From NCBI GenBank assembly GCA_964627015.1, contig CAZVGY010000002.1, positions 36,554-100,553 on the forward strand: a stretch of 64,000 nt of DNA, read 5' to 3'. A program made the translations under genes and the position numbers. Shown piece after piece: positions 1 through 54,023 of the stretch (the first letter of the stretch is position 1; every line of letters begins with the position of its first letter). The notes beneath the pieces were generated by a model. It was not told the DNA's origin. It did no database searches and saw nothing but the letters and a program-made list of their open reading frames with translations. Source of the DNA: an uncultured Desulfobacteraceae bacterium. Lineage in GTDB: Bacteria > Desulfobacterota > DSM-4660 > Desulfatiglandales > Desulfatiglandaceae.

Positions 1-189
1 GCGGAACATCTAAATCGGACAGGACGAATCAATCAGGTGACAGGAATAGATTTGAATTGTTTGGAAGGGGCGGTGGTTTCTTTTCGGAAAAGTTAGCCCC
101 AGAGTTTCTTAAACGAGCGTTTTTCTGTCTGAAGCTTGTCGTAAGTAATTGAAGCCTTTTCATACTTATAAGACGAGGTGACGAATAGG

Positions 190-18217: not shown

Positions 18218-18365
18218 GGCGGAGGGCCTGAAGTCCCCTCCCTGGCCCACGGCGATCTCCTGGGATGTATATCCTGAAGTTGCAGACTTTCGAGAGGACC
18301 GCAAGCTCTCCGCCGTACAAGGAGAAATAAAGCATTTTCAAATGTTACCGGCGGAAGTCTTCCGT
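18218..18365 (+). repeat. Short diverged relative of the Y element (see 20355..20769)
   Basis: The core gcagactttcgagaggaccgcaagctctccgc matches Y copy B gcggactttcagagggaaccgcaagctctgcgc at about 27 of 33 positions. The flanks align only weakly by eye (ggcgatctcctgggatg versus ggtggtatctcccattatg). Confidence 0.4.
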
Positions 18366-19866: not shown

Positions 19867-20224
19867 GAATTGTTCCTCCGTAACTGAAATTAAAATATTC
19901 GATTTCACAGCTTTGGCAATTATAAGACAGCAACTTGACCGGAACATGACGGCAGCATTACCAAATGGTAATGTTAGAAATGAGGGGACCAGGGGTTCAG
20001 GGGGTCATGGGAAGGAAGTGTATTGATAGGGCATGTTCTTGGTTCCAATTCTCATGGACTGGTTTTTTCATTTAACTACAAGAAGGGCAAAATTCGAAAT
20101 TCTAATATCGAAATTATAAACAAATTTAAATATCTAATGTTCAAAATATAAAAACAGAGGATAACTACAGTATGAGTAGCTATTGTTTTGATCACTTGAA
20201 TTTTATTTATTGAGTATTGTTTAG

Positions 20225-20329
20225 GATTTCAATTTTCTAAACAGGCCTTTCGGCTTTAAAAAGAGAGTTCTGAGCAGTCGCCAAGGGTTGTTTGCAGGGT
20301 TGGCTTCGAGCTTACGATTCCCTCTTCAG
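20225..20329 (+). repeat. X repeat, copy A (about 100 nt)
   Basis: ...caattttctaaacaggcctttcggctttaaaaagagagttctgagcagtcgccaagggttgtttgcagggttggcttcgagcttacgattccctcttcag. Related copies lie at 25148..25255 and 53111..53216, with a partial copy at 37705..37737. Confidence 0.8.
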
Positions 20330-20354
20330 ACCGCCTCTACTCCAGCAGAGGAGG

Positions 20355-20769
20355 CGGTCCTGGCTTCAAGGGTGCCGGTGCAGGCCGGTGGTATCTCCCA
20401 TTATGCCCATAAAAGGCACCCTTAGCTGCGGACCGCGGCCAAAGTTTTGAGTAGAATATTGAAAGATGCGGACATAGAGGGAACCGCAAACTCTCCGCTG
20501 ACGGCAATGGGGTATACTGAAGGAGCCTTGCCAGCAGTCACCTTTGAAAATACCTTATCCCTTCCGGGTATGGCGGGAAGCTCATATTGTGAGAGTCAAG
20601 GGGCCGATTTTATACAGACTGTCCAGGGCTCTCTGTTACAAGCCGACCAGGTACAGTGGTAAACAGGGTGGCATACTAAGAGGGTGAGGCGAGCGGCGGG
20701 ATAGCAGGGAGTGAGCCTTATTAAAGAAGCGACGGATTCAGCAAAAACGCCCTCCGCTCGTCTTTATGG
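20355..20769 (+). repeat. Y element copy A: about 415-nt non-coding repeat, candidate structured RNA
   Basis: Collinear with 24731..25147 at roughly 90 percent identity by eye. A 2-nt indel and non-periodic substitutions rule out conserved coding. It sits in the 1.1-kb htrA/hisS divergent intergenic region. Confidence 0.75.
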
Positions 20770-21130
20770 TGTTTGGTTTTAATTTTCCACATGGGGCTTT
20801 CCACTTTGAAAGATAGTTATAAACAGGTCCCATATTCAACAGACAGAGTTTGAGCATTCAATGTGACCGGTTGCATATTTTAAAGAGCTTATGCAGTATC
20901 AGGGAGCTTGTAGTATAGTATGCTTCAGGATTATAAGCTGCTGTAAAGAGATTAAAATGGAAGGAGCTTTGAATTTTTTGGAATAGACATTTACAGTTCG
21001 GCGTATTAAGTTGTACCGCTATCAACTGAAGCCCTGAATTTGACATGATTAATAATCATCTCAGAGCCGTTGACGTATGCTCGGGGCTTTTGATAAAAGA
21101 CCTTCTAGTAAAGAAGGGGGAGGCAGTAAT

Positions 21131-22390
21131 TTGGAATTTTCTACTGTAAAAGGTTTTAAAGATATATTACCTTCAGAAGCGGGTAAGTGGCAGAAGCTTG
21201 AAGCCTCAGCCCGTAAGGTGTTTCATTCCTTCGGATACCATGAGATCAGGACTCCCCTGTTAGAGAGAACCGAGCTTTTCAGTCGCGGAATTGGACAGGA
21301 CACTGATATTGTTTCAAAGGAGATGTATTCCCTCGAGGACAGCAAAGGCAGGGGGATGACAATGAGGCCTGAAGCTACTGCATCAGTGGTGAGGGCCTAT
21401 ATCCAACACCGACTTTATCAGGCAAGCCCTGTACAGAAGCTTTTCAGTATCGGCCCGATGTTTCGGCACGAGAGGCCTCAAAAAGGGAGATTCAGGCAGT
21501 TTCACCAGGTGAATGCAGAGATTTTAGGTGATCCAGGGCCCAGAAGTGATGCCGAAATTATTATAATGGCCGTGTTCCTGTTGGAGACGATAGGTGTCAA
21601 AAGTCTAAGCCTTAAACTTAACTCACTCGGATGTCCTACATGCAGACCCCGTTATAAAGAAGAACTCAGGGATTACCTTTTGGGAAAAGTTGCTTTATTT
21701 TGTTCGGATTGCAGGAGGAGATCAGAGGTTAATCCCTTGAGGGTATTTGATTGCAAGATGGAAGAGTGCAACAGAGTTGTGGAAGGCGCCCCGTCGACAC
21801 TGGAGTTTCTCTGTGATGAATGTCGCGATCACTTTGAATCCGTTCAGGGTTATCTGAAAAGATCGGATGTATCTTTTGTCCTGGATCACAGGCTTGTTAG
21901 AGGGCTTGATTATTATACCCGCACTGCTTTTGAGATACAGACGGAACTGCTGGGCTCTCAGAATGCTGTTGCAGGTGGGGGCAGATACGACGGCCTGATA
22001 AAACTTCTTGGAGGGCCGGACCATCCAGCAATTGGATTTGCTTTGGGAATTGAAAGGGTGATTTCCCTGGTGCAAGGGCAAGATGAGGAGGATTTTGAAA
22101 TCAGAGGGCCTGACCTTTTTATTGCTGCACTGGGGGACAATGCGGTTAAGGGCTGCTTTAAATGGGTCATAGAACTGAGGAAAGCTGGTTTCTGGGTTGA
22201 AATGGACTACGCCTCAAGAGGTCTGAAGGCCCAGATGAAAAAGGCTGACAGGCTCCGGGCAAGGAAGGTCCTGATTGTAGGCGACGATGAATTGGCCTCT
22301 GGAAGAGGTATCTTACGTGACCTGGTAACAGGAGACCAGGGTGAACTGGGCCTTGATGCCATCGCAACAATTATTGAGAAGGTATTATAG
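21131..22390 (+). CDS. hisS: Histidine--tRNA ligase
   Basis: Class II motifs (RPEATASVVRAY, FRHERPQKGRFRQFHQ, GGGRYDGL). Typical HisS proteins start near KGFKDILP, so I prefer TTG 21131 (GGGGGAGG 7 nt upstream). The track ATG 21077 remains possible. Confidence 0.93.
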   Translation: MEFSTVKGFKDILPSEAGKWQKLEASARKVFHSFGYHEIRTPLLERTELFSRGIGQDTDIVSKEMYSLEDSKGRGMTMRPEATASVVRAYIQHRLYQASPVQKLFSIGPMFRHERPQKGRFRQFHQVNAEILGDPGPRSDAEIIIMAVFLLETIGVKSLSLKLNSLGCPTCRPRYKEELRDYLLGKVALFCSDCRRRSEVNPLRVFDCKMEECNRVVEGAPSTLEFLCDECRDHFESVQGYLKRSDVSFVLDHRLVRGLDYYTRTAFEIQTELLGSQNAVAGGGRYDGLIKLLGGPDHPAIGFALGIERVISLVQGQDEEDFEIRGPDLFIAALGDNAVKGCFKWVIELRKAGFWVEMDYASRGLKAQMKKADRLRARKVLIVGDDELASGRGILRDLVTGDQGELGLDAIATIIEKVL

Positions 22391-22394
22391 ACTA

Positions 22395-24194
22395 ATGAAG
22401 AATAATGAAGAGTTTAGGATTGATCCTTTGGGTGAATGGAAGCGAACCTGTGATTGCGGCAGTCTGAGGGTGGAAAATGTAGGCGAGGAAGTTGTTTTGA
22501 TGGGCTGGGTGAATTCGAGGCGGGATCTGGGAAGCCTTATTTTTATTGACCTTCGTGACCGAGGTGGACTCACACAGGTAGTTTTTGATCCCCAGGTAGA
22601 CCGGTCGTGTCATGATAGGGCTCATATACTCAGGAATGAGTGGGTCTTGGCGGTCAAAGGAACGGTTTTCCCTCGTCTTGAAGGACAGGAAAATCCTGAT
22701 TTGCCTACTGGAGATATAGAGATACATGTAAGGGAGATAAAGATTCTTAACAGGACTGAGACCCCTCCCTTTCAGATCGACGGTCCTGTGGATGCCTCTG
22801 AGATACTTAGGCTCAAATACCGTTACCTTGAGCTGCGGAGGGCTCAGGTACAAAACCTTTTCCGTAAACGCCATGAGATTTCATCCTGTATAAGGGAGTA
22901 CCTGAACAGAGAGTCATTCATTGAGGTGGAGACGCCCTTTTTGACAAAGAGCACCCCTGAAGGTGCGAGAGATTATCTTGTTCCCAGCAGGGTAAACAGG
23001 GGTATGTTTTATGCTTTGCCTCAATCCCCCCAGCTTTTTAAGCAGTTGCTTATGGTAGCTGGATTTGACCGTTATTATCAGATTGTTAAGTGCTTCAGGG
23101 ATGAAGACCTGAGAGCGGATCGTCAGCCCGAATTCACCCAGGTGGATCTTGAGATGTCCTTCATTGATGAAGAGGGGGTTATGGGGGTTTTTGAAGGCAT
23201 GATGAAGGAGATCTTTGACCGAGTCTTGAGTCGTTCTATTGAAACTCCTATCCCGCGATTGGAATACAGCCAGGCTATGGATCGTTTTGGGACCGATAGA
23301 CCAGACACGCGATTCGGTATGGAGTTGAGAGACATAACCGACATCGCTGGCAGATCGGATTTCAGGGTGTTCAGGGGAGTAATCCAAAATGGTGGTGTAG
23401 TCAAGGCGATTATGGTCAGAAGAGGGGCGGATTATTTTTCCAGGAAAGGCATAGATGAACTTTCACAAGTGGCTAATGAAAATGGTGCCAAAGGACTTGT
23501 CTGGATAAAGGTTGTCGATAACGGGTGGCAATCCTCTATTGATAAATTTTTCAAAGAGCAGGACAAGGCTGCTATCAACAAGAGGCTGGAAGCTGAACCA
23601 GGTGACTTGGTGTTAATTGTGGCTGATAATACAGAAATTACCAATGAAGCTCTGGGGCGCCTCAGAATCGACTTGGCTGGACGCCTGGGGCTGATCGATA
23701 AGGATGAATTCGCCCTCGTATGGGTCATAAAGTTTCCACTCTTTGAATATAATGAAACTGAAAAAAGGCTGGAAGCGGTGCATCATCCTTTTACTGCACC
23801 GGTTCAAGATGACCTCCACCTTTTTGGCGACAATCCGGGAAGGGTAAGGGCTAGGGCCTATGATTTGGTTCTGAATGGTGCTGAAATAGGGGGAGGAAGT
23901 GTGAGGATACACAACCTTGCCCTTCAGGAGAGGATGTTCGACATTCTGGGGATAGCACCTTCTGAGGCCCAACGTAAGTTTGGGTTTCTCCTCGAGGCCT
24001 TGAAATACGGGGCTCCTCCCCATGCCGGGATGGCAATCGGTTTAGACCGTCTGGTTGCTATTATGACAGGTGTGGGATCAATAAGGGAGGTCATTGCATT
24101 CCCAAAGACAACCAGCGCAACCTGCCCGCTTACCGACGCACCCTCCACGATTGATGAAGAACAACTAAAAGAACTCGGCCTTAAAAATTTATGA
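22395..24194 (+). CDS. aspS: Aspartate--tRNA ligase
   Basis: OB-fold N-terminus (VVLMGWVNSRRDLGSLIFIDLRDRGG), motif 2 FRDEDLRADRQPEFTQVD, motif 3 GLDRLVAIM. ATG 22395 lies just after the hisS stop. The track start at 22341 overlaps hisS. Confidence 0.95.
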   Translation: MKNNEEFRIDPLGEWKRTCDCGSLRVENVGEEVVLMGWVNSRRDLGSLIFIDLRDRGGLTQVVFDPQVDRSCHDRAHILRNEWVLAVKGTVFPRLEGQENPDLPTGDIEIHVREIKILNRTETPPFQIDGPVDASEILRLKYRYLELRRAQVQNLFRKRHEISSCIREYLNRESFIEVETPFLTKSTPEGARDYLVPSRVNRGMFYALPQSPQLFKQLLMVAGFDRYYQIVKCFRDEDLRADRQPEFTQVDLEMSFIDEEGVMGVFEGMMKEIFDRVLSRSIETPIPRLEYSQAMDRFGTDRPDTRFGMELRDITDIAGRSDFRVFRGVIQNGGVVKAIMVRRGADYFSRKGIDELSQVANENGAKGLVWIKVVDNGWQSSIDKFFKEQDKAAINKRLEAEPGDLVLIVADNTEITNEALGRLRIDLAGRLGLIDKDEFALVWVIKFPLFEYNETEKRLEAVHHPFTAPVQDDLHLFGDNPGRVRARAYDLVLNGAEIGGGSVRIHNLALQERMFDILGIAPSEAQRKFGFLLEALKYGAPPHAGMAIGLDRLVAIMTGVGSIREVIAFPKTTSATCPLTDAPSTIDEEQLKELGLKNL

Positions 24195-24334
24195 CCTGGT
24201 AAATAGGATCCGTATCCAGATCCGGTAATTTTTTAAGGACAGTTTGTTTAATTTTCTTGACATGAAAACGCCAATCAGGCATATACCAATGTTCTCAAAT
24301 TTTGCAATTTTATAGATGAAAGGATGTGATTAAA

Positions 24335-24619
24335 ATGGTTTGTTCAACTGTTAAGGAAGGGTATGATTGTGCTTTTATGAGCAAGCAGGGCTGTCAGTTT
24401 AATGGTGGTACCTGTCACGTGATTGTAGAACAGTGCGAAGGATGCAGCAAGGCGCAGGAATTCCCCTCAGGCAAGTATTGCCTCATTTTCCCCGATCCCT
24501 CTGCCAAATGGAGATTAGGCAACTGCAGTATGGCCACACATTTGAAGGCATTGGAAGGAAAAGAAAAAACAAACGGGAAATTGAACCCCCTGAAGGCCTC
24601 CAAGCGAGGCGGTCGTTAA
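24335..24619 (+). CDS. PxxKW-family cysteine-rich small protein
   Basis: 94 aa with eight Cys (C..C......C......C....C..C) and the motif DPSAKW (P-x-x-K-W). Family name is from memory of NCBI naming. Confidence 0.6.
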   Translation: MVCSTVKEGYDCAFMSKQGCQFNGGTCHVIVEQCEGCSKAQEFPSGKYCLIFPDPSAKWRLGNCSMATHLKALEGKEKTNGKLNPLKASKRGGR

Positions 24620-24730
24620 TTATACCTATTGGTTCCCTTTTAGGTCCCGCTTTAGTTTTACATTTTTTGAGGAGACGATAGACTTCGGCCTTGTGGTGTC
24701 CTTCAAAGGAAGCCTACTCTAGTAAAGAGA

Positions 24731-25147
24731 CGGTCCTGGCTTCAAGTGTGCCCGCGCAGTCCTGTGGTATCTCCCATTATGCCCATAAAAGGCACACTTA
24801 GCTGCGGACTGCGGCCAACGTTTTGCCTGGAATATTGAAAGATGCGGACTTTCAGAGGGAACCGCAAGCTCTGCGCTGATGGCACCGGGGTATGCTGAAG
24901 GAGCCTTGCCACCAGTCACCTTTGAAGACACCTTATCCCTTCCGGGTATGGCGGGAAGCTCATATTGTGAGAGTCAAGGCGCCGATTTTATATAGACTTT
25001 TCGGGGCTCTCTGTTACAAGCCGACCAGGTACGGTGGTAAATAGGCCTGCATGCTAAAAATGTGAGGCGAGCGGCGGGATAGCAGGGAGTGAGCCTTAGT
25101 AAAGAAGCGACGGATTTAGCAAAAACGCCCTCCGCTCGCCTTTATGG
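24731..25147 (+). repeat. Y element copy B
   Basis: Same order and orientation as copy A, and ends in the same long stem (gaggcgagcggcggg ... ccctccgctcgcc). Confidence 0.75.
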
Positions 25148-25255
25148 CACCGGGTTTAATTTTGCAAATAGGACTTTCGGCTTTAAAAAGAGAGCCCTGA
25201 GCAGTCGTTAAGGTCTGTTTTGAGTATTAGCTTCGAGCCTGCAGTCCCCTCAAAG
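25148..25255 (+). repeat. X repeat, copy B (directly 3' of Y copy B)
   Basis: caccgggtttaattttgcaaataggactttcggctttaaaaagagagccctgagcagtcgttaaggtctgttttgagtattagcttcgagcctgcagtcccctcaaagg. Confidence 0.8.
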
Positions 25256-37659: not shown

Positions 37660-37704
37660 TAATCTTAATGTCTGGGTTATAGGAGGATGAGAAAATTCCA
37701 GTTA

Positions 37705-37737
37705 GGGTCGGCTTCGGTCTTACGGTCCCCTCTTCAG
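37705..37737 (+). repeat. Partial X repeat (3' part only)
   Basis: gggtcggcttcggtcttacggtcccctcttcag versus copy A gggttggcttcgagcttacgattccctcttcag, about 30 of 36 identical when the flanking bases are included. Confidence 0.55.
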
Positions 37738-37954
37738 TCCTCCCACCTATGATTGCTTGACAGCGGGTGACCTTTCCCATATTCTCCATTTATTCGAAAG
37801 TCATTTTGGGTTCCATACATTTGGTCATTGTAATTTTTGTTTATTAGAAGCCCTGTGGGCTGTGACTCATGAGTCGGCTCCAGGTTTGTTCGTATATAAT
37901 CAAACAGTTTTCACGCTTCATATGCCCATATGAGACAAACAAAGGAGTCAACTC

Positions 37955-38935
37955 TTGATTGAAGAAGTTTTACCTGATCTATTTCGAATAAAAATACCTT
38001 TGCCTAACAGTCCTCTGAAATTTCTCAATTCTTATGCGATAAGGAGTTCGAGGCGGAATCTAATCGTGGACACCGGCTTGAACAGAAAAGAGTGTCTAAA
38101 GGTTATGTTGTCGGCTTTGCGTGAATTGGGGCTGGACATGGGACAGACTGATTTTTTTATCACTCACCTCCATGCTGATCATTTCGGCCTGGTGACGAAG
38201 CTGGCTACAAATACGAGCCGGATCTTTTTTAATAAGCCGGATAAAGAGATACTCGAGGTCTCAGACGGCTGGAAATATATACTTGATTATGCAGGGGGGC
38301 ATGGATTTCCGGAGTATGAGCTTAAAAAGGCTCTGGAGAGCCATCCAGGCTATCGGTATAGATCAGATTGGATTCCCGATATGATTATTTTGAAGGATGG
38401 AGACGAAATAGAAGCAGGCAGATTTTTATTCAGATGTGTTCACACTCCCGGGCACACAAAGGGGCACACGTGCCTATACGAATCTGAGAAAAAGATTCTG
38501 TTAGCCGGGGATCATGTACTCGCGGATATAACGCCTAATATTCAGTGCTGGTCCGATCAGGACAATCCACTTAAGAGTTATCTGTCAAGCCTGGATAAGA
38601 TCTATGAACTCGACCTGGCCCTTGTCCTTCCGGGACACAGGGGTTTTATAGAGAATCATAAGGAAAGGATCGAGGAGTTGAAAGTCCATCACTACCAACG
38701 GATCAGTGAAATACTCGATATACTGGATAAGGGCCCTATGAATGCCTACCAGATAGCTTCTGAGATGGAATGGGATATAGTTTGCGATTCCTGGGATCAG
38801 TTTCCAATAGCACAAAAATGGTTTGCTACAGGGGAGGCAATCGCCCACATTCGATACCTCGAGGACGAGGGCAAAATTATAAGAAAAACAGTAGAAAAGA
38901 CAATAACGTTTTCACGGAACTTTGGATCAGTCTAG
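37955..38935 (+). CDS. MBL-fold metallo-hydrolase with C-terminal helical/winged-helix-like extension
   Basis: HLHADHFG, HTPGHTKGH, GDHVLADITPNI, and the tail HHYQRISEILDILDKGPMNAYQIASEM. TTG start with AAGGAG 7 nt upstream. Confidence 0.8.
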   Translation: MIEEVLPDLFRIKIPLPNSPLKFLNSYAIRSSRRNLIVDTGLNRKECLKVMLSALRELGLDMGQTDFFITHLHADHFGLVTKLATNTSRIFFNKPDKEILEVSDGWKYILDYAGGHGFPEYELKKALESHPGYRYRSDWIPDMIILKDGDEIEAGRFLFRCVHTPGHTKGHTCLYESEKKILLAGDHVLADITPNIQCWSDQDNPLKSYLSSLDKIYELDLALVLPGHRGFIENHKERIEELKVHHYQRISEILDILDKGPMNAYQIASEMEWDIVCDSWDQFPIAQKWFATGEAIAHIRYLEDEGKIIRKTVEKTITFSRNFGSV

Positions 38936-52766: not shown

Positions 52767-53078
52767 CCGAAATTGTTTGTCTGTTTGAAGAATAGGGATA
52801 TACTTTTACCTTTATGCATGTCAAGTGTAAAGTTGTAGTTAGGTTTGCTAGTTAAGGAGATGGTCTTCAAAAATTCCTGGGGGTATGTCCAAAATAATAG
52901 GGTCCGATATAGCCAGGTGGGCGGCTTTTGCTTATTTAAGGAAGTCTCTCTTCCATAAAAGAAACAGATCCCTTCTTTTTTATTAGTCGATTTGCCTGAA
53001 CCCCTCTTTTTTTTAAGGCGGTTTCTAAGAAGGCGCCTGGATAGAACCCTTACCTGGAATTTAAAAGTGTTTATTCAC

Positions 53079-53216
53079 CTCAGCAAAAGGGCCTTCTGTT
53101 CGCCTTGGTGGCACCGGGTTTTAATTTCCCATATAGGACTTTCGGCTTTAAAAAGAGAGTTATGAACAGTCGTCAAGGTTTGTTTTGAGGATTAGCTCCT
53201 AGCTTCCAGTCCCCTC
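53079..53216 (+). repeat. Y 3'-end remnant plus X repeat copy C
   Basis: cctcagcaaaagggccttctgttcgccttggtggcaccgggttttaatttcccatataggactttcggctttaaaaagagagttatgaacagtcgtcaaggtttgttttgaggattagctcctagcttccagtcccctc aligns with the last ~35 nt of Y copy B (its 3' arm) plus X copy B. Confidence 0.7.
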
Positions 53217-53381
53217 TCTAATATGTTTATACTTTATCAGAGAGAAGGGCCTTGCTTGAGGGTTGGGTGGATCCAAAGAGAAGTGAAGTTTTGGTTCTTG
53301 ATTACTTGGGGTTTTTTATCTATACTGAACAGCTCTAAACTTAAAAACCTGTTGAACTTCGACCAGTTATGGGGGTGAAGA

Positions 53382-54023
53382 TTGTTTATAACCTTTGAGG
53401 GTATAGAAGGGTGCGGTAAATCCAGTCAAGCGAAGCGGCTTGCCGATCGGCTGAAACAGATTGGGGTACCTCTTCTCCTGACACTCGAACCAGGGGGGAC
53501 CAAGATAGGGGCAGAAATAAGGAGGCTTCTCCTGGATTCCAAGAATGATGACCTTTCTCCTCTGGCAGAACTTCTGCTGTACGAGGCAGACAGGGCACAG
53601 CATGTGAGTGAAGTCATAGCCCCTGCTCTGGAAAGAGGTAAGTGGGTGCTCTGCGACCGTTTTTTTGACGCAACCACGGTTTACCAGGGATATGGGCGTG
53701 GTCTCGATCTTGGATTTGTCCAGGAGCTTAATGGAAGAGCCTCCTGTGGTATCAGGCCTGACATCACCTTCCTGATAGATTGTCCTGTTCATGTAGGGAT
53801 CAAAAGGGCTTTGGAGAGGAATGAATCGCTTTTGGAAGATGGCCAGGATAGATTCGAAAGAGAAAGGGTGGTTTTTCACGAGGCCGTTCGGCGAGGATAT
53901 CTTGCACTCGCCGTCGAGGAAAGAAGGCGATTTGTTATAACGGACGGCACGCTGACAGAAGAAGATGTAGAAGAACAAATATTTAAACATCTCGCACCAT
54001 ACCTTCCCGTAATGGCGAAATAA
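53382..54023 (+). CDS. tmk: Thymidylate kinase
   Basis: P-loop FITFEGIEGCGKSSQ, DR(F/Y) motif LCDRFFDAT, and a lid region. TTG start. Confidence 0.93.
   Translation: MFITFEGIEGCGKSSQAKRLADRLKQIGVPLLLTLEPGGTKIGAEIRRLLLDSKNDDLSPLAELLLYEADRAQHVSEVIAPALERGKWVLCDRFFDATTVYQGYGRGLDLGFVQELNGRASCGIRPDITFLIDCPVHVGIKRALERNESLLEDGQDRFERERVVFHEAVRRGYLALAVEERRRFVITDGTLTEEDVEEQIFKHLAPYLPVMAK

Follow-up and report, generated by a model that had tools for sequence, protein, structure and literature searches.

What is the non-coding element that occurs twice around hisS and aspS in an uncultured Desulfobacteraceae bacterium, and does it behave as an RNA gene or as a repeat? The window, the 64-kb stretch of contig CAZVGY010000002.1 analysed here, had been given a sequence-only reading that described an unclassified 415-nt element at 20355-20769 (copy E_A) and a second near-identical copy downstream (E_B), and proposed either a hitherto undescribed large structured RNA or a non-autonomous repeat of a new kind. 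Both copies are real, but E is no self-contained 415-nt gene; it makes up most of a modular, ~550-nt non-coding unit, with further fragments at 18.2, 37.7 and 53.1 kb. The unit occupies multiple loci in truncated and permuted forms, turns over between strains, is homogenised within a genome and is associated with synteny breaks. It has no coding capacity, lies outside known RNA families and carries conserved inverted blocks that close a stable hairpin. On balance, we favour a modular, hairpin-forming family of intergenic repeats, lineage-specific as far as sampled, whose behaviour resembles that of REP, BIME and MITE (miniature inverted-repeat transposable element) systems. Of the two original proposals, the repeat has held, with at least six loci, permutation and concerted evolution, whereas a single 415-nt RNA has not, the covariation terms being positive.

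A modular unit in at least six intergenic loci

E_A and E_B align on the same strand (20337-20811 with 24714-25188) at 87.8% identity over 477 columns (BLASTN E 2e-170), with 90% identity in the two ungapped blocks common to both. Gene calls place hisS (21077-22390), aspS and a DUF6811 gene (24326-24619) between them, in agreement with the sequence-only reading, which had described near-identical, same-strand non-coding copies flanking hisS-aspS and a third gene. The 2-nt indel that it reported is present in the alignment (gacat--agaggg versus gactttcagaggg), and the open reading frame (ORF) list contains one frame private to each copy, a 71-aa ORF on the + strand of E_A (20447-20662) and a 70-aa ORF on the - strand of E_B (24719-24931), neither with a Pfam match. 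The 38 substitutions in the core are distributed 16/13/9 over the three phases, confirming the reported lack of 3-periodicity, and the substitution spectrum is mixed, with 29 transitions, 24 transversions and every type represented; clustering is not significant (P 0.21). A chimeric query composed of all long stop-free E frames on both strands, directed at a set of 5.8 billion proteins in search of mis-called E copies, retrieved nothing. Neither Pfam nor this six-frame query gave a coding signal for E.

The unit is ordered D3a, D3b, hairpin h, module b (holding an 87-nt hairpin) and module c (holding the E core and stem P3), followed by the next D3a, and forms short head-to-tail arrays or truncated remnants at no fewer than six intergenic loci of one uncultured Desulfobacterota lineage. 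D3 is a second repeat of ~100 nt joined to each E copy; its 21-nt core CTTTCGGCTTTAAAAAGAGAG is invariant and occurs three times in the window against zero expected. D3a contains a 36-nt imperfect palindrome (GACTTTCGGCTTT-AAAAAG-AGAGYYCTGARCAGTC). No other block of E is as conserved as the 30-nt E core (GGGCTCTCTGTTACAAGCCGACCAGGTA; 20617-20646 and 24995-25024), an inverted copy of the D3a core. The earlier statement that the element has no terminal inverted repeats is correct for the ends of the 415-nt element, but in its interior the 30-nt block inverts the core of the flanking D3. All family copies are intergenic, all window pieces lie on the + strand, and self-comparison of the window revealed no further repeats beyond the E/D3 family. 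Sequences of a sister strain and of more distant relatives, described below, are labelled by contig (L001, L008-L015, L018-L020, L022, L023, L026, L027 and L029). The pieces in the window are as follows.

18232-18315, +: fragment of module b (middle of the E 5' half), between the M48 peptidase and DegP genes
20224-20329, +: intact D3 upstream of E_A (repeat match 20228-20324), detected by repeat comparison, BLAST and nhmmer
~20224-20276, +: D3a of this D3, holding the core CTTTCGGCTTTAAAAAGAGAG; its D3b follows at ~20277-20329, +
20330-20361, +: hairpin h (CCGCCTC ... GAGGCGG), between D3 and E, read from the sequence
20337-20774, +: E_A, consisting of module b (to ~20513) and module c
20354-20436, +: 5' hairpin domain of E_A, in which helices P1 and P2 close a conserved 38-nt loop
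20617-20646, +: E core of E_A, nearly invariant across copies
20686-20764, +: P3, a 14-pair stem (20686-20700 with 20750-20764) with a variable loop of ~50 nt
20775-20830, +: degenerate D3a downstream of E_A (nhmmer E 2e-4), 92.7% identical to its sister-strain orthologue
24650-24713, +: degenerate D3b-like remnant upstream of E_B, from alignment of GATAGACTTCGGCCTTGTGGTGTC-CTTCAAAG with the D3b tail
24714-25154, +: E_B, with its E core at 24995-25024 and P3 at 25064-25142
24994-25207, +: M hairpin, formed by the last third of E_B and D3a, with the E core/D3a pairing as base helix and P3 nested inside
25155-25251, +: intact D3 directly downstream of E_B, facing the 3' end of a convergent CBS/ACT gene
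37704-37743, +: 40-nt remnant of the D3b tail (GGTCGGCTTCGGTCTTACGGTCCCCTCTTCAG), from BLAST and alignment, 212 nt upstream of a metallo-beta-lactamase (MBL)-fold gene
53080-53218, +: site C, a full D3 (match 53082-53217) attached to the final 35 nt of E with the 3' strand of a P3-like stem, 164 nt upstream of tmk

The fragment at 18.2 kb was identified with the E profile (18244-18315, nhmmer E 2e-5), its alignment having ACCGCAAGCTCTCCGC in common. Hairpin h is kept in L015 and L022 and is degenerate before E_B. The 14 pairs of P3 correspond to the terminal stem of about 14 bp noted in the sequence-only reading, and the 3' boundary drawn there at 20769 cuts the M hairpin in two, which needs the downstream D3 half. 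The start of hisS lies 247 nt past the degenerate D3a at 20775-20830.

In E_B, an exact direct repeat of 11 nt, ATGGCACCGGG, lies on either side of module c (~255 nt), at 24879-24889 and 25144-25154. The short unit of L015 has its halves joined at a single copy of this repeat (ATGGCAACGGG), and in E_A and L015 the two copies have diverged. From the bracket and the single-copy joint, module c looks like an insertion with duplication or a segment lost when the two repeat copies recombined.

Site C (53020-53115) lacks the 5' strand of P3, and its remaining 3' strand carries ~5 substitutions, which let it pair with unrelated flanking sequence (AGAAGGC/GCCTTCT and AAGGCG/CGCCTT), so that a hairpin before D3 is retained though the original partner is gone. 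Site C had also been considered as a diverged M hairpin with compensatory pairs, an interpretation that was dropped since the sister strain shows the 5' strand to be ordinary flank.

Array turnover and concerted evolution between strains

A metagenome scan with a 22-mer from a conserved loop recovered one true relative, contig Ga0272444_10036603 (L014), and a longer ENA contig of the same organism (L015) displays a whole array. Here an FG-GAP gene and a terminator are followed by a short unit (part of D3, h and the initial 175 nt of E), then by a long unit (D3, h, full E with 78% identity to E_A, and D3a), a bidirectional terminator and a convergent gene. The organism of L014 and L015 is a sister strain of the window organism, since the same metagenome contains a HisS of the same 90% cluster (L022). 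The two strains share 96.65% identity in hisS and 94.9% in a neutral-looking intergenic flank, and SRR15988952, the run from which the window's own hisS contig comes, contains the FG-GAP gene as well (L001, L020). Several contigs begin or stop within the repeat: L001 begins in E, L022 in h, and L014 stops in D3.

At every comparable locus, module content differs between the strains despite flanks that are 92-97% identical (primes mark variant or degenerate modules).

Upstream of hisS: D3-h-E-D3a' in the window; E-D3-h'-degenerate b'-D3a' in the sister strain
Downstream of DUF6811: remnant-b-c-D3 in the window; a D3b-h variant, ~270 nt of other sequence and c-D3-h-b-degenerate D3 in the sister strain, where the unit is thus cyclically shifted
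Site C: a short remnant and D3 in the window; a longer c and D3 in the sister strain (L026 and L027, two independent assemblies)
37.7 kb: a 40-nt tail in the window; a full c and D3 at exactly the same junction in the sister strain (L029 138-447), preceded by the orthologue of the 18.2-kb fragment (L029 1-78, 93.6% identical)
FG-GAP locus: direct entry into c in the window organism's run (L020); a short and a long unit in L015

The copies also evolve in concert. Measured over the region from the E core to P3, the paralogues around hisS-aspS-DUF6811 are 98% identical in the sister strain (L022 versus L023) and 88% identical in the window (E_A versus E_B), whereas positional orthologues between the strains are only 79% and 85% identical. 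Paralogues being more alike than positional orthologues, gene conversion is indicated, and the 98% identity in the sister strain implies that the two arrays exchange sequence. E_A and its positional orthologue share 86% identity overall, ranging from 61 to 100% in 40-column windows, next to a flank of 95%, and the comparison resolves into a mosaic of segments closest to different paralogues. The arrays around hisS-aspS-DUF6811 are two arrays that convert each other, not the product of a simple gene duplication, and the strain-to-strain pattern is the behaviour of recombining repeat DNA, unlike that of a conserved single-copy RNA gene.

Synteny with more distant organisms is interrupted at the same places. 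The nearest distinct organisms, annotated as Desulfatiglandaceae or Desulfobacterota metagenome-assembled genomes, have a HisS ~71% identical to that of the window and keep the order hisS-aspS-PhoU-PHO4-DUF6811 followed by FtsJ-dxs-ispA-xseB-xseA; BLAST and nhmmer detected neither E nor D3 at their hisS loci (L008-L013, L018, L019). The window keeps the hisS-to-xseA backbone gene order of these relatives, and as their backbone is unbroken and free of E, both E copies of the window sit at synteny breaks. Upstream of hisS, DegP replaces ArsA/AF_1253, and after DUF6811 a block of CBS, histidine kinase and response regulator genes is inserted. Six matches of the 18-mer TATGGCGGGAAGCTCATA among genome contigs were all due to chance, BLASTN of E against plasmids and phages gave no match, and neither did a scan of viral contigs with the E and D3 cores.

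A further break lies past the site C array (window 53218-53382; L026 560-830, L027), where the sister strain carries a purA-like gene, whose product starts MSNTVVVGTQWGDEGK, in place of tmk; this places a synteny break exactly at the repeat. In L029, only ~330 nt separate the counterparts of the 18.2-kb fragment and of position 37704, joined there by a c and D3 unit; in the window, 19.4 kb with housekeeping genes from DegP to an amidase lie between the two. The difference reflects either a repeat-mediated rearrangement or a chimeric contig. An additional module 'p' (GGGAGCTGCGGTTTTMACCCRARTCTAAGT), absent from the window, precedes the FG-GAP-locus arrays in both strains (L015 2935-2985, L020 1855-1900) and module c at the DUF6811 locus of the sister strain (L023 ~1650-1610, minus strand).

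Conserved hairpins and the competing readings

Two sub-domains of the unit are predicted to fold well. The 87-nt 5' hairpin reaches z scores of -3.7 (E_A), -1.85 (E_B), -3.7 (L015) and -2.4 (L022), with equal stability on the minus strand and one compensatory pair in E_B (G-C to U-A). The M hairpin, spanning 214 nt from the E core to the end of D3a, is predicted at -88.1 kcal/mol (z -4.7) on the + strand and -70.9 kcal/mol (z -3.6) on the - strand of the window, and at -89.4 (z -5.7) and -71.2 kcal/mol, respectively, in L015. Across seven copies, 94.5% of its cells are paired, compared with 37-53% for slid controls; its variation is nearly all one-sided, from G-C to G-U, with one compensatory pair. 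Within it, P3 has 100% of cells paired, 12 of the 14 pairs being invariant and two varying from G-C to G-U. By these predictions the hairpins are conserved and the + strand is the better folder, which is compatible with a role as RNA and with one as single-stranded DNA.

The main rival to a repeat family is a multi-copy family of trans-acting structured non-coding RNA genes, comprising the ~550-nt unit or the 415-nt E, each with its own + strand promoter and homogenised because the RNA sequence matters. This reading is unlikely but draws on several features of the family: a GC content of 52-54% in E versus 31-40% in adjacent intergenic DNA, nearly invariant blocks alternating with variable ones, 5' and M hairpins that fold significantly better than shuffles, stem columns that vary less than loop columns (23/134 versus 31/79, Fisher p 5e-4), and the compensatory G-C to U-A pair. 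Two arrays also lie between convergent genes, behind terminators, as expected of an independent transcription unit. Polymorphic pairs mostly change from G-C to G-U (20 pairs, versus six going to A.C), but as the + strand served for predicting the fold, this excess of G.U is in part circular.

The element as a whole does not bear this reading out. The fold of the entire 511-nt region is no better than that of shuffles on either strand (z about 0), and a structure predicted from one copy and scored on the other retains, among the pairs that changed, 9-11 of 29 (+ strand) and 6-7 of 22-27 (- strand), giving no global signal. RNAalifold covariation terms for the full element are positive, and hence penalised, at +1.92 (three copies) and +3.81 (four copies), and the centre of module c diverges by indels and broken pairs. 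Although 31 of the 37 pairs in P1, P2 and P3 are invariant, 126 of 500 column shuffles do as well, as do 331-482 of 500 for the M hairpin, depending on the measure; with four to seven closely related copies, these covariation tests have low power. Neither a conserved sigma-70-like promoter nor an intrinsic terminator is present at unit ends. Sigma-54 and sigma-70 promoter candidates, sought in D3 and where E begins, were rejected, their hexamers not being conserved between copies. Many copies are truncated, permuted or degenerate, and sequence change in the positional orthologue is ~3x faster than in the neutral flank, which is unlike a conserved RNA gene. A scan with Rfam 15 at gathering score returned zero matches in both copies, the whole window and four related loci, in line with the earlier reading, which had matched the element to none of RNase P, tmRNA, 6S, SRP, group I or II introns, HEARO and OLE, and the E-value mode applied to E gave chance-level matches only. 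The best sub-threshold match, to the alphaproteobacterial small RNA ar15, lies on the - strand opposite E_B (24785-24909), scores 22 bits against a gathering score of 40 and was judged to be chance (E 0.038 in a 731-nt search).

Next comes a cis-acting host element spread by recombination, which would serve in the transcript or in DNA as a 3'-end stabiliser, terminator, insulator or portable upstream regulatory region. Such roles have been proposed for REP, ERIC and Correia elements. Arrays end 160-250 nt upstream of a co-oriented gene at four loci, those of hisS, the MBL-fold gene and tmk in the window (gaps 20830-21077, 37743-37955 and 53218-53382) and of purA in the sister strain (L026 ~606-830), a spacing that could arise either because insertion favours promoter regions or because the arrays exert regulation outwards. 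At two further loci the array follows a co-oriented gene in a convergent gap, and site C keeps a hairpin despite the lost partner strand. However, the downstream genes are functionally unrelated, U-runs do not follow the structures, the 18.2-kb fragment is antisense to both neighbour genes, and array content differs between the sister strains without visible consequence; we regard this explanation as improbable.

A more unusual proposal, to which we give little credence, is that the ~550-nt unit represents a large structured RNA element of a new class, able to copy itself into head-to-tail arrays although it has no recognisable enzyme of its own. Possibly, a recombinase encoded elsewhere would use the complementary E core and D3a core for recognition or as guides; another possibility is spread through a rolling intermediate of RNA or single-stranded DNA.

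The remaining explanations are effectively excluded. A one-off segmental duplication or single integration scar that brought or moved hisS-aspS-DUF6811, with no wider family, would account for the two direct repeats bracketing a 4.4-kb block and for an upstream neighbour that differs from that of relatives, but the family has additional members, whole or fragmentary, at 18.2, 37.7 and 53.1 kb as well as at the FG-GAP locus, the order hisS-aspS...DUF6811...FtsJ-dxs is ancestral, and both arrays are already present in the sister strain in other forms. Fainter still is the case for a CsrA/RsmE-type sponge RNA with many GGA motifs in hairpin loops, a guess that came from the earlier reader's impression of frequent GGA: the E copies hold 8-9 GGA (8.1-9.5 expected from composition), one AGGA each (~2 expected) and four ANGGA (~2 expected, P 0.12-0.20), all at chance frequency, and Rfam has no match to CsrB, CsrC or RsmX/Y/Z. 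A diversity-generating retroelement with template and variable repeats was rejected on the mixed, not adenine-confined substitution spectrum and the lack of a reverse transcriptase gene in the window, and integron attC sites, in which R'' (RYYYAAC) and R' (GTTRRRY) core sites enclose an imperfect palindrome, on the candidate R' sequences GTTAAGG, GCCAAGG, GTCAAGG and GTTGAGG, none of which fits GTTRRRY, and on the housekeeping genes between the copies.

For the favoured family of recombining repeats, a plausible mechanism combines three processes. Units would be gained and lost through recombination at short junction repeats, such as GGCACCGGG|TTTAATTTT, which ends both module b and module c, with the 11-mer around module c (exact in E_B) as a further junction repeat; gene conversion would keep the copies alike; and new loci may originate from a trans-catalysed transposition or template-switch step that acts on single strands and depends on the hairpin, by analogy with REP/REPIN and IS200/IS605-derived elements. 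The recognised structure would be the conserved inverted pair of E core and D3a core. The + strand is probably co-transcribed with neighbouring genes, and the hairpins may also act as RNA; such transcription and an RNA-level role are possible and mildly favoured by the G.U excess.

Several observations weigh against this interpretation. The large ORFs of the window are all housekeeping genes, and no transposase, integrase, reverse transcriptase, Y1 transposase or nuclease gene is encoded there, extending the corresponding statement of the sequence-only reading. No copy of the M hairpin was found outside the larger unit; target-site duplications were not found either, and none is definable because the M hairpin is always flanked by the same repeat sequence. 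All window pieces share one strand and all loci found belong to one lineage, so that local recombination alone could explain much. The rearrangement between 18.2 and 37.7 kb is seen in a single metagenome contig (L029), a possible chimera. The + strand of the M hairpin is ~17-18 kcal/mol more stable than the - strand and its helix cells contain 76 G.U against 8 A.C, both of which fit an RNA-level role at least equally. Finally, the units far exceed REP or REPIN sequences in size, and, in contrast to typical REPs, half of the loci are situated in divergent promoter regions.

If the repeat interpretation is correct, this is a previously undescribed family from an uncultured Desulfobacterota lineage, with unusually large modular units, and strains 3-5% diverged visibly differ through the array turnover and gene conversion, and probably the genome rearrangement, that it drives. 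As direct repeats of ~475 nt (20337-25188) bracket the essential hisS and aspS, the 4.4-kb block could be deleted or tandemly amplified by recombination. The family breaks short-read assemblies of this lineage, and screens based on GC content or conservation could mistake it for an RNA gene. Were the RNA reading true instead, it would add a large RNA class without a known partner protein.

Likeness to known repeat and RNA systems

The nearest systems in behaviour are REP/REPIN, mosaic repeats of the BIME type and MITEs, although the family cannot be assigned to any of them. Like the large RNAs OLE, GOLLD, ROOL, HEARO/IscB omega RNA, raiA and CsrB/RsmZ, it has no ORF, a comparable size range and a GC content above that of its surroundings, but it differs from them in having no useful Rfam 15 match, no covariation support, no IscB/TnpB-type gene and no enrichment of GGA.

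BIME of E. coli, pneumococcal BOX and bcr of B. cereus are composed of mosaic modules and are intergenic, hairpin-forming and strain-variable. The present family likewise combines a small set of modules in varied combinations and numbers across loci, although its modules measure 50-260 nt, are uniform instead of alternating in orientation and are found in one lineage. With MITEs and PATEs derived from IS200/IS605, it shares a non-autonomous, non-coding character, a length of a few hundred bases, a marked potential for hairpins, and inverted blocks or subterminal hairpins that are conserved. Neither E nor the unit ends in inverted repeats, however, no target-site duplication was found, and the direct repeat of 11 nt that surrounds module c, which is exact in E_B only, lacks matching inverted ends. 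We know of no parent insertion sequence for the E/D3 family.

The resemblance to REP sequences and REPINs extends to structure. As in those systems, the copies are extragenic and non-coding, contain no transposase inside the element, include singlets and degenerate remnants, and form ordered clusters. REPs are extragenic imperfect palindromes of 20-40 bp with an unpaired GTAG or CGTC tag at one end (PMC3733652), and D3a likewise contains an imperfect palindrome, of 36 nt, with all copies intergenic. The end of its stem carries CAGT-CGTC in four copies (site C, L022, L023 and L029), CGTT in four and CGCC in two, and is ambiguous with respect to the REP tag. A REPIN is a REP doublet that forms a hairpin and is mobilised by a RAYT tyrosine transposase, for which a hairpin-dependent single-strand mechanism has been proposed (PMC3116915); here, too, two short, inverted, most conserved blocks and a less conserved spacer fold into a long hairpin. 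The inverted E core and D3a blocks are ~150-180 nt apart, as opposed to 71 bp in the Pseudomonas GI REPIN, and are embedded in a ~550-nt unit with three further conserved modules, the doublet never being found alone. Head-to-tail arrays and the presence of half of the loci in divergent promoter regions set the family further apart. REPs and REPINs reach high copy numbers per genome, and the repeat flanks a RAYT gene; no RAYT/Y1_Tnp gene was seen in the 64 kb read, and among the sequences compared such genes were seen only in more distant relatives without the repeat. In those relatives, IS200/RAYT-type Y1_Tnp genes lie near hisS (L011 13601-13825 and L013 191-625), one of them fused to a DnaA_C-like domain, on contigs free of both E and D3.

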